DNA of 64,000 nt, taken from NCBI RefSeq assembly GCF_017348835.2, contig NZ_CP071375.1, one strand, 5' to 3'. The stretch comes from Escherichia coli (GTDB taxonomy: Bacteria; Pseudomonadota; Gammaproteobacteria; Enterobacterales; Enterobacteriaceae). The notes under the pieces were generated by a model. It was not told the DNA's origin. It did not search any database and saw only the letters and a list, made by a program, of their open reading frames with translations. Both the position numbers and the translations under genes were made by a program. Below are positions 32,264 through 36,073 of the stretch, piece by piece. The first letter of the stretch is position 1. Every line of letters begins with the position of its first letter.

Positions 32264-32587
32264 TTACTCGGCAGAAGAGGATTTGATGTCGGCGAGCTGT
32301 TTCTCCAGCCCGGCAATGCGCTGTTGCAGTTGCATAACGGAGGAATCATGGCTTTGCATTCCCCATCCCCGCTCCGGGCGGTAAAGCGTGGCCCAAATCC
32401 ACAAAAACGGCCAGATAACATGTAACGTAAAAAGACTCACCCAACCAGCAACATGAATGGCGTCGGCATGAGGATGATTACGTTTTTTAGCAATCAGGTA
32501 GGGAATATCATGTAAAATAATAATCCCATAAAATATCACCAGAAATACAAAAATAAGCACTCCCAGTGCAAAATAGTCCAGGAACAT
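32264..32587 (-). CDS. yiaW: DUF3302 inner membrane protein
   Basis: ORF trimmed to [21 protein letters not shown]… (107 aa); paralog of yibI. Confidence 0.8.
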
Positions 32588-32989
32588 ATTTCCCTCAGAG
32601 AATATAAAAAAGAACAATTAACGCATATTATGAAATGCCATGATGCAGTGCAATTCCCTTATTTATATAACGACATATTGTTTTTTATATACTTCCTGAA
32701 GTGTGCTGACTGGCTTTTTAACAGGTCGAGGCTTATCATATTGAAATAATGGAACTATTGGCCAAATTTATGATTAAAAACCGTAAAACATCCACAATGC
32801 AGATTAAGCGTATTAAACCTTCAATAATCTACCGTTTATTGCTGATTGTCCTCGGAATACCAATGGTGATTTACGGTCTGGTTTGCCCGCTCACCATCGA
32901 AACGCGAGATTAAACTCCTGGCAAAACACGCCCCAGAAACGCACTTTTGTTGGCGTAGTCTGGGTTATTGCACACGTAGGTTTAAAACG

Positions 32990-33110
32990 TAAATTGTAAC
33001 AACGTGCGCTTTGTTTATGCCGGATGCGGCGTGTACGCCTTATCCGACCTACGGTCAGGTTCCCGTAGGCATGATAAGACGAGTAAGCGTCGCATCAGGC
33101 AATGAATACC
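32990..33110. repeat. REP/BIME cluster
   Basis: GCCGGATGCGGCGTGTACGCCTTATCCGACCTAC… and AGCGTCGCATCAGGCAAT units. Confidence 0.75.
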
Positions 33111-33131
33111 CAATGCGACCAGCTTCTTATA

Positions 33132-34670
33132 TCAGAACAGCCCCAACGGTTTATCTGAGTAGCTCACTAGCAGGCACTTGGTTTGCTGGTAATGCTCCAG
33201 CATCATCTTGTGGGTTTCGCGACCGATGCCTGATTGTTTGTAGCCGCCAAACGCCGCATGTGCCGGGTAAGCGTGATAACAGTTGGTCCACACGCGCCCA
33301 GCCTGTATGCCGCGCCCCATCTTATAGGCCAGATTACCGTTGCGGCTCCAGACGCCCGCGCCCAGGCCATATTGCGTATCGTTCGCCAGCTCCAGCGCTT
33401 CTTCCATCGTTTTGAAGGTGGTCACCGCCAGCACCGGGCCAAAAATCTCCTCCTGGAACACGCGCATATTGTTCTGACCAAACAGAATCGTCGGTTCGAG
33501 GTAGTAGCCGTCTTTCAGTTCACCTTCCAGCAGCTTGCGCCGCCCGCCAGTGAGCACGTCTGCGCCCTCTTTTTTACCGATATCAATGTAGTTGAGGATG
33601 GTTTCCAGTTGCCCGTGAGAAACCTGCGCCCCCATTTGCGTCACGCTGTCGAGTGGGTTACCGCTGCGAATGCTTTCGACACGGCGGATGGCGCGTTCCA
33701 TAAAGCGTTCGTAGATTGACTCCTGCACTAAGGCACGACTCGGACAGGTGCAAACTTCGCCCTGGTTAAAGGCAAACAGTGCAAAGCCTTCCAGCGCTTT
33801 ATCGAAAAAGGCATCTTCTTCATCCATCACATCAGCAAAGAAGATATTTGGCGACTTACCGCCCAGCTCCAGCGTCACCGGAATAATGTTTTGCGTTGCG
33901 TATTGCATAATTTGTTGGCCCACTTCCGTTGAGCCGGTAAACGCCACTTTGGCGATGCGTTTCGAGGTCGCCAGATATTCGCCAATTTCCCCACCAGCGC
34001 CATTGACCACGTTCACCACGCCCGGCGGCAGTAAATCACCGACGATTTCCATTAGCAGCAGTACAGAAAGCGGGGTAAGACGTGCGGGTTTCAGCACCAC
34101 ACAGTTGCCCGCCGCCAGCGCGGGAGCCATTTTCCAGCTCGCCATCAGCAGCGGGAAGTTCCACGGGATAATCTGCCCCACCACGCCTAACGGTTCATGG
34201 AAATGATAGGCCACGGTTTCGCTATCAACTTCACTGATCCCACCTTCCTGCGCCCGAATACACGAGGCGAAATAGCGGAAATGGTCAATCGCCAGCGGTA
34301 CATCCGCAGCACTGGTTTCGCGAATGGGTTTGCCGTTATCCCAGGTTTCAGCTGTCGCTAACAGCTCGAGGTTTTGTTCCATTCGATCGGCAATCTTAAA
34401 CAGAATCGCCGCGCGATCCTGCACCGAGGTGTGCGCCCATTTATCTTTCACTTTGTGCGCAGCATCCAGCGCCAGATCGATGTCTCGTTTGCCCGAAGAC
34501 GCCACTTCGCACAGCAGCTGCCCGGTCACCGGCGTCAGGTTCTGGTAATACTCACCATCGGCAGGGGCTACCCATTCGCCGCCAATAAAGTTGTCGTAGC
34601 GGGCTTTTAACTTGATGGGGAAACCATACTCACCGGGCTTAATCTGTGCTGAAGGGGGATTGTTGGTCAT
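33132..34670 (-). CDS. aldB: Aldehyde dehydrogenase B
   Basis: ORF trimmed to [17 protein letters not shown]… (512 aa); catalytic region present. Confidence 0.95.
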
Positions 34671-34777: not shown

Positions 34778-36073
34778 TTACAACGGATAATGCGCGACGT
34801 ACACTGCTTGCTGGTCATTAATTTTCTTCTCTTGCGCAAATCCTTCTTTAACAATCGTCCGTAAATCAGTTCGCGCTGTATTATCAGAGACGCCCAGACT
34901 CGCGCTGGTTTCAGAAACTGTGTACTCTTTCCCCGGATTGGCGAGCATCACATTCAGGAGCGTTACCTGGCGAGGATTCAGGCGTTTAAGCACACCAGAG
35001 CTAAACAGCACACTATCGAGTTTTGCGCTTCGTTGTGTAATTTCATCAATATGCTGCTGCAAGTTATGCAGAGCGCGTTTAATGACATCGGCCTGATATT
35101 CAAGGAAATAAGTCAGATCCATACCGTCTGATTCAGTGTACTGGTAGCTGGCAGCATATTTGACTGGCGCAGCATGAAGCAAACGGCTGATGGAAATATA
35201 TTTAAAGACATCGTAGCCCGATTTCAGCATATACCAGTAAAACAGCGCCCGACTGGTGCGCCCGTTGCCATCGCGAAATGGATGTTCATGGGCCAGCATA
35301 AAATGCAGAATGCAGGCACGGATTAACGGGTGAATATACCCTTCATGGCTGTTTAACCACTGGCAAACTTTTTCCAGTCGTTCCGGTAACAATGCCGCAG
35401 CGGGCGGTTGGTGCACAATATTGCCGTCATAATCGGCGATCACGACATCATCTGTTTCACGAAATTCACCTGGACGATATTTCGCGTCATTTATTCCCCC
35501 CATGCCAATGGCATGTAACTGGCGAATAAGCGCAGGTGTCAGCGGTTCTGCGAGTAAGTGCGGAATTTCCGCCATCAGCCGGGCATTTCCCGCAATCATA
35601 TGCTCGTCTTCAGTGCGTGGCGACCGTCCTGTTTCCAGCATTTTTCTCGCCACCAGCGTTGTAGTATTCGCACCTTCCAGCTGGGAGCTGGTGATCGGCT
35701 CTTCCAGGCGTAACTGGCTTAACTCGGCTCCGGCCCCGCGTAACCGTTCAGTCTGATCTTTCAGCGCCAGCGCGGTAGCACGTTTGTCGACAAGCTCGCA
35801 CGCTTCTGCAATCACCGGGGTAATGTTGAATCCGGCCTGTTCACCCGCTTCATTGCAATAATTAATTCGTTGGATCGCCGCGTTGCGCGCCAGACGGGTA
35901 AGCGTCCACGCCACATCGACGTTTTCTCCTTTTTTGATGCGGTACTGCAACTCATCAAAAGGCAGATAACGTCCTTTTTCATCGGTAACCCGGTTAAAGC
36001 GCAGGTGGGCCAGGAGTTCCTCACCCGATAAGTGTGATAAAGGAATAAGTCCGGGAGGTGATTTGATAGCCAT
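34778..36073 (-). CDS. Fic-family protein (putative AMPylator) with C-terminal winged-HTH-like domain
   Basis: 431-aa ORF carrying canonical Fic motif [12 protein letters not shown] and a candidate N-terminal inhibitory motif SSQLEG ([ST]xxxE[GN]). Confidence 0.8.

Follow-up and report, generated by a model that had tools for sequence, protein, structure and literature searches.

The yiaW-aldB region and its open reading frame

In the yiaW-aldB spacer of the window (the whole stretch of Escherichia coli DNA analyzed here, 64,000 nucleotides in length), an open reading frame (ORF) of 47 codons plus stop lies on the + strand (32770..32913; ATG at 32770, TAA at 32911-32913), and its translation is MIKNRKTSTMQIKRIKPSIIYRLLLIVLGIPMVIYGLVCPLTIETRD. 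It had been proposed as a possible unannotated small membrane protein gene, and the position and peptide given in the original prediction match the re-derived translation exactly. Its placement is also correct: the ORF is flanked on the left by yiaW (32264..32587, - strand), which encodes a DUF3302 protein and was used here as the control for selection, and on the right by aldB (33132..34670, - strand), being divergent from the former and convergent with the latter. The spacer is 100% identical to that of strain PE164 and about 94% identical to that of K-12. An in-frame upstream extension (32749..32769, + strand) offers two alternative starts, ATG 32749 and TTG 32758, with products of 54 and 51 aa, respectively. 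The start of this extension is not conserved, as it reads GTG in K-12 and E1V33 and is followed directly by a stop in L087. The predicted hydrophobic stretch is real, its best 19-residue Kyte-Doolittle mean reaching 2.53 in the window allele but no more than 1.71 in that of K-12, and an Arg lies within the segment.

Several other features share the spacer. Between yiaW and the ORF, the yiaWV promoter is placed by sequence homology at 32684..32712 (- strand; CAGTCA-17-TATAAA), the K-12 promoter having been assigned as CAGACA-17-TATAAA in a study that also lists the yiaW-aldB spacer as bound by H-NS (PMC3946193). A hypervariable patch (32683..32802), with 7-8 substitutions per 30 bp among eight strains versus 1-3 elsewhere, spans this putative promoter and reaches through codon 11 of the ORF. 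The allele of the window itself resembles a mosaic of L087-type (KNRK) and L086-type (M10, V27, I30, C39) haplotypes, which suggests recombination. The interval from the ORF to the aldB end contains palindromic REP-type repeats (33013..33142), recognized as sub-threshold hits of the REP-derived Rfam family naRNA4 on both strands and by several BLAST matches of the segment per genome; they are located outside the ORF, over which Rfam gave no match, and occupy the place of the hicAB genes of other strains. Directly beyond aldB, the window strain carries a gene for a 431-aa Fic family protein (34778..36073, - strand), while in MG1655 yiaY follows aldB directly, so that the Fic gene appears to be an insertion specific to this strain, at the junction of aldB and yiaY.

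Whether the ORF is unannotated depends on the source. The description holds for the curated MG1655 record, in which no gene is present between yiaW and aldB and where the ORF would occupy 3754611..3754754 (+ strand), but not for PGAP, which calls a 'hypothetical protein' at the ORF in all ten of the short-form E. coli loci fetched. The PGAP product has 47 aa with the equivalent of ATG 32770 in eight loci and 51 aa (from TTG 32758) in PE164. A PGAP 'hypothetical protein' is likewise shown under the BLAST match in K-12 ER2796, and among the matches listed, 23 of the 25 full-length hits carry this annotation. A protein search with the ORF peptide returned E. coli entries only, of oddly variable length. 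In many strains, gene callers had lengthened the ORF upstream to 70-95 aa through the in-frame spacer (P0007, P0009, P0016, and P0017), and some join it to a 39-aa ORF at 32630..32749. These 70-95-aa extensions and fusions are not conserved and look like annotation artefacts.

The length of the ORF is not significant by itself, because random 544-bp sequences of the same composition contained an ATG-initiated ORF of at least 47 aa in 43% of cases when simulated by mononucleotide shuffle and in 57% when simulated by a first-order Markov model. What raises it above chance is its homology to a longer conserved gene, described below.

The 104-codon gene and its in-frame deletion

The yiaW loci of one genome per species were fetched and then searched with the ORF peptide. 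Clear homologues, lying upstream of yiaW, were found in Escherichia whittamii (L006), Escherichia sp. E1V33 (L004), and Citrobacter amalonaticus (L007), and in these three, as well as in the E. coli loci L084 and L085, a gene of 104 codons has the same position, strand, and ATG as the ORF. In tblastn searches with the long proteins, the Escherichia and Citrobacter sequences aligned end to end without gaps at 56% identity. Orthologues were also present in Franconibacter (103 codons) and Salmonella bongori (about 104 codons after correction of an assembly frameshift), in both cases convergent with aldB and located between avtA and aldB. Since aldB adjoins the long gene in Escherichia, Citrobacter, Franconibacter, and S. 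bongori, and the last two have the avtA-aldB placement, the stable neighbour of the gene is aldB rather than yiaW. A 49-aa call in S. bongori was considered as an independent truncation and rejected, as the remainder of the gene runs on in another frame. In that locus (L099; LR134137.1, a long-read NCTC assembly), aldB, avtA, and the membrane-protein gene are all split by frameshifts, and because aldB and avtA are fragmented there too, the split gene is likely to be a sequencing or assembly error.

An exhaustive profile search gave 256 cluster representatives with an E-value of 1e-3 or lower (66 with the cutoff at 1e-10), and the majority of them are 100-125 aa long and match the profile over its full length. 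The named members come from Citrobacter amalonaticus/farmeri, Franconibacter, and Escherichia, all of them 'hypothetical', the entries from Citrobacter amalonaticus/farmeri and Franconibacter reading 'hypothetical protein' or 'inner membrane protein'. Neither Pfam nor NCBIfam had a match at threshold for the short form, the long form, or 60 family members. The UniRef name 'DUF3566', carried by one Franconibacter member, was not reproduced, with none of the 60 members matching DUF3566 at the gathering threshold. An AlphaFold2 model built from a 60-sequence alignment (mean pLDDT of 79) consists of a strand (7-10), a helix (17-44), a hairpin (50-57), a second helix (59-95), and a final strand (100-103); Foldseek found no match to this model in the PDB better than E=1.5. 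Residues G59, G88, and L89 are invariant in the family, and G27, G40, G46, and W90 are nearly so. The 104-codon gene is a real gene that belongs to an uncharacterised family of two-helix membrane proteins, the membrane topology being a prediction from the model.

Two further members were seen in altered form. P0068, a 68-aa sequence from a JGI metagenome, has apparently undergone another in-frame internal deletion in which helix 1 is joined to the end of helix 2, which hints that the gene is prone to internal deletions. In Escherichia sp. MOD1-EC7003 (L005, rc ~105-215), the 5' half has been swapped for unrelated sequence (CTGTCATACTTCAAGTTGCATGTGCGTTGG...), and only the C-terminal ~45 codons remain, without a start, representing an independent inactivation of the long gene.

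Comparison of the two forms shows how they are related. In blastn alignments of the intergenic region with L006 and L004, the match breaks at query positions 285-299, exactly at the 3' end of the ORF, where the long alleles contain about 157 additional bp. Codons 1-39 of the ORF correspond to codons 1-39 of the long gene, and codons 40-47 to codons 97-104. The short allele thus lacks 156 bp (52 codons) between two imperfect direct repeats, which read TACGGyCTGGTTTGC and TACAGCCTGGTyCGC in the long alleles and lie 156 bp apart, and a hybrid copy of the repeat, TACGGTCTGGTTTGC, marks the deletion junction (32872..32886, + strand) as read from the sequence. The original prediction was right about the membrane-protein look of the ORF, which retains from a conserved 104-aa gene the N-terminus, the greater part of the first transmembrane helix, and the eight final codons. 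In tblastn, residues 1-39 of the ORF alone align to the long proteins, and there is no full-length match to the ~104-position profile, of which the short forms (for example, P0002 and P0026) cover positions 1-39/40.

Measured against the family (represented in E. coli by WP_001064340.1 and WP_001064341.1), the ORF shares the start codon and the locus convergent with aldB, and it keeps the N-terminal motif KRIK-x3-IYRLLLIGLG-xP and the C-terminal RPL-x-(I/V) tail. It lacks residues 40-96, namely the end of helix 1, the WN-x4-HG loop, helix 2, and the GLW-YS motif. All of G40, G46, G59, G88, L89, and W90 fall in the deleted segment; of the invariant and near-invariant residues, G27 alone lies in the retained part, and it is kept in the K-12 allele and replaced (G27V) in the window allele. 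The locus combines two features of a pseudogene, an intact syntenic homologue in relatives and the loss of essential parts. The reading frame itself is undisrupted, the deletion being of 52 codons and the frame remaining open in all eight short haplotypes. Conservation in close relatives had been suggested as a check on the small-protein proposal, and the outcome goes against that proposal in an unexpected manner: the relatives hold the intact long gene and E. coli the disrupted one.

The deleted allele predominates in E. coli. Among 5426 complete genomes, 28 have the long allele, annotated by PGAP as the two 104-aa hypothetical proteins named above, and about 3786 have the deleted one. In about 30% of E. 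coli, the yiaTUVW side is absent and the last ~8 codons remain next to hicAB. The yiaW-aldB junction (32872..33131) is a pangenome breakpoint with several arrangements: yiaW, short ORF, REP, and aldB in the window and K-12; yiaW, long gene, and aldB in L084; yiaW, long gene, hicBA, and aldB in L085 and E1V33; and a GH127/MFS island, the 8-codon remnant, hicBA, and aldB in L003, which stands for the ~30% without the yiaW side. In L085, the long gene and hicB share 4 nt at their 3' ends.

Selection and expression signals

Selection was compared among 8 distinct short haplotypes, 4 Escherichia long alleles, and yiaW from the same 8 short-form strains. The short allele has 13 nonsynonymous and 4 synonymous polymorphisms, where about 3:1 is expected under neutrality, and these are spread over the three codon positions as 6:5:6. 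In contrast, the long allele has 9 nonsynonymous and 21 synonymous changes (codon positions 8:1:21) and the yiaW control has 3 and 17 (4:1:15). Within the 47 retained codons, the long alleles show 5 nonsynonymous and 13 synonymous changes (tallied from the substitution list). The difference between short and long alleles is significant (Fisher p=0.0029), which is the relaxation of selection relative to an intact allele that is looked for in a pseudogene. Pairwise dN/dS values of the long alleles are 0.09-0.17, including those of Escherichia against Citrobacter, and pairwise omega values of the short alleles are mostly 0.4-1.4. The long alleles are thus under purifying selection, and the polymorphism of the short alleles is indistinguishable from neutral, with change at the pace of unconstrained DNA. 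The dN/dS analysis envisaged in the original prediction reveals no purifying selection on the short peptide: in binomial tests on the 17 short-allele polymorphisms, omega values of 0.15 (p=1.5e-4) and 0.3 (p=0.014) were rejected, and a value of 0.5 was not (p=0.13).

Substitution density reaches 11.8 per 100 bp in the ORF, against 18 in the spacer upstream of it and 6.2 both in yiaW and in the spacer downstream. Two observations speak against a relic, the open frame in all eight sampled short haplotypes and the rarity of frameshifted or fused variants of the ORF among database proteins. The open frame is no evidence of selection, however, since a stop is created by only 3.9% of single-base changes in the ORF and the probability that 17 random changes create none is 0.51. 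Codons 11-26 and 40-47 are also nearly invariant among the short alleles, a pattern for which either residual constraint or a mere scarcity of mutations could account.

With respect to expression, no sigma-70 consensus promoter was found on the + strand, and no Shine-Dalgarno-like sequence within 15 nt of any candidate start. The remark in the original prediction that a strong Shine-Dalgarno site is lacking is therefore borne out, there being no AGGAGG-like site before any of the three starts. AGGAG-like or GAGG sites precede the orthologues of Franconibacter and S. bongori as well as two family members from metagenomes, and a weaker AGGA is present in the Citrobacter copy. The constrained long alleles of Escherichia have the same leader without a Shine-Dalgarno sequence, so its absence from the short form is no proof of non-translation. 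Some translation from ATG 32770 is plausible on the basis of this shared leader, and a short peptide may be made without being useful. No record of translation was met in the covered parts of the smORFer, 'Cryptic Bacterial Microproteome', acid-stress, and EHEC Sakai supplements, which does not amount to a true negative.

Interpretation of the short ORF

Taken together, the ORF is most probably an in-frame-deleted and neutrally evolving relic of a membrane-protein gene of ~104 codons. What is directly observed is the homology to the long gene, the 156-bp deletion, the loss of residues conserved in the family, and the selective contrast between short and long alleles; we infer that the short ORF has no selected function. 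The ancestor would have been an uncharacterised inner-membrane protein gene of ~104 codons, with a predicted layout of a short N-terminal strand, a helix (17-44), a short hairpin loop, a second helix (59-95), and a short C-terminal strand. In the lineage that gave rise to most E. coli, this gene would have lost exactly 156 bp through slippage or illegitimate recombination between its 15-bp imperfect repeats (encoding YGLVC and YSLVR), so that codon 39 is now directly followed by codon 97 and the frame is preserved. The lost segment holds the last part of helix 1, the loop, almost the whole of helix 2, and all invariant residues of the family. The frame would still be open only because 156 is divisible by three and the time since the deletion has been too short for a stop to appear, and the short sequence would now be in neutral drift. 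A 47-aa peptide could be made at a low level, since the intact Escherichia allele uses the same start without a Shine-Dalgarno sequence.

Among known systems, pseudogenes produced by direct-repeat deletions resemble the ORF in having an intact syntenic orthologue, a lost core, relaxed selection, and repeats at the deletion ends; the ORF differs from them in that its deletion is in frame, with no frameshift or stop. Validated small membrane proteins of E. coli have direct translation evidence, and many of them are conserved. The ORF is like them in its size, single hydrophobic helix, basic N-terminus, and intergenic location, but differs in the lack of a Shine-Dalgarno sequence, in neutral evolution, and in being a deletion derivative of a larger gene. 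Small membrane proteins of this class (<=50 aa) are covered by Ribo-seq and tagging catalogues, for example bioRxiv 10.1101/511675 and 10.1101/2021.07.02.450978.

The main alternative is that the 47-aa product was retained or repurposed after the deletion as a functional single-pass small membrane protein, which we consider unlikely. Its basic N-terminus, one hydrophobic helix, and short acidic tail would by analogy fit a modulator of larger membrane complexes. The open frame and conserved ATG in all sampled short alleles, the PGAP call in every fetched short-form locus, and a Kyte-Doolittle mean of 1.7-2.5 over the hydrophobic segment, which G27V and T30I increase further in the window allele, are in agreement with such a role, as are the near-invariant codons 11-26 and 40-47 and the compatibility of the polymorphism data with an omega of 0.5. 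These points are set against the 13:4 ratio and the flat codon-position spectrum, compared with a constrained long allele and yiaW, the loss of all family-invariant residues, the lack of both a Shine-Dalgarno sequence and a promoter consensus, the omission from the curated MG1655 gene list, the lack of a match in the accessible parts of the Ribo-seq supplements, and the absence of the ORF from about 30% of E. coli. On much the same grounds, the short ORF finds no support as an independent small-protein gene. The more specific version, in which a new 47-aa single-pass peptide is made and used, for example with the adjacent YiaV/YiaW, and the variability of its N-terminus and of residues 27-30 represents adaptation, is less likely still.

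Comparably improbable is conservation of the DNA for a non-coding function (for example, as a distal yiaWV regulatory site, an sRNA, or an antisense transcript, on either of the two strands), with the open frame being incidental. An invariant stretch of 48 nt (codons 11-26) amid variable DNA and the H-NS-bound nature of the region (PMC3946193) are compatible with it, but Rfam has no match over the ORF, no terminator-like or promoter-like site was seen on the + strand within it, and chance explains the invariant stretch equally well (about 5.8 changes expected and 1 seen). Finally, a chance ORF without coding history, in a spacer of AT-rich regulatory sequence occupied only by the aldB terminator with REP elements, H-NS sites, and the yiaWV promoter, could draw on the frequency of such lengths in random sequences, the promoter and H-NS site in the spacer (PMC3946193), and the position of the 5' part inside the hypervariable patch, but it is hardly credible and is refuted by the codon-for-codon homology to a constrained 104-codon gene in four genera and to a family of 256 representatives, which establishes the coding origin.

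The ORF is therefore most likely a harmless relic of the 104-codon gene and not a new small protein, and gene remnants of this kind are ordinary. Its practical value concerns annotation, as the ORF is present in about 70% of complete E. coli genomes and is annotated by pipelines as a normal small gene because an in-frame deletion leaves no frameshift or stop as a mark. A better label than 'hypothetical protein' would be in-frame-deleted remnant of a 104-aa gene. The case also illustrates that an open frame with membrane-like sequence is insufficient proof of a small-protein gene, since an in-frame deletion can leave a relic that bears genuine coding features. The parent family is fairly widespread and has no Pfam or NCBIfam model or known function, and the rare E. 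coli strains with an intact allele offer natural material for its study.
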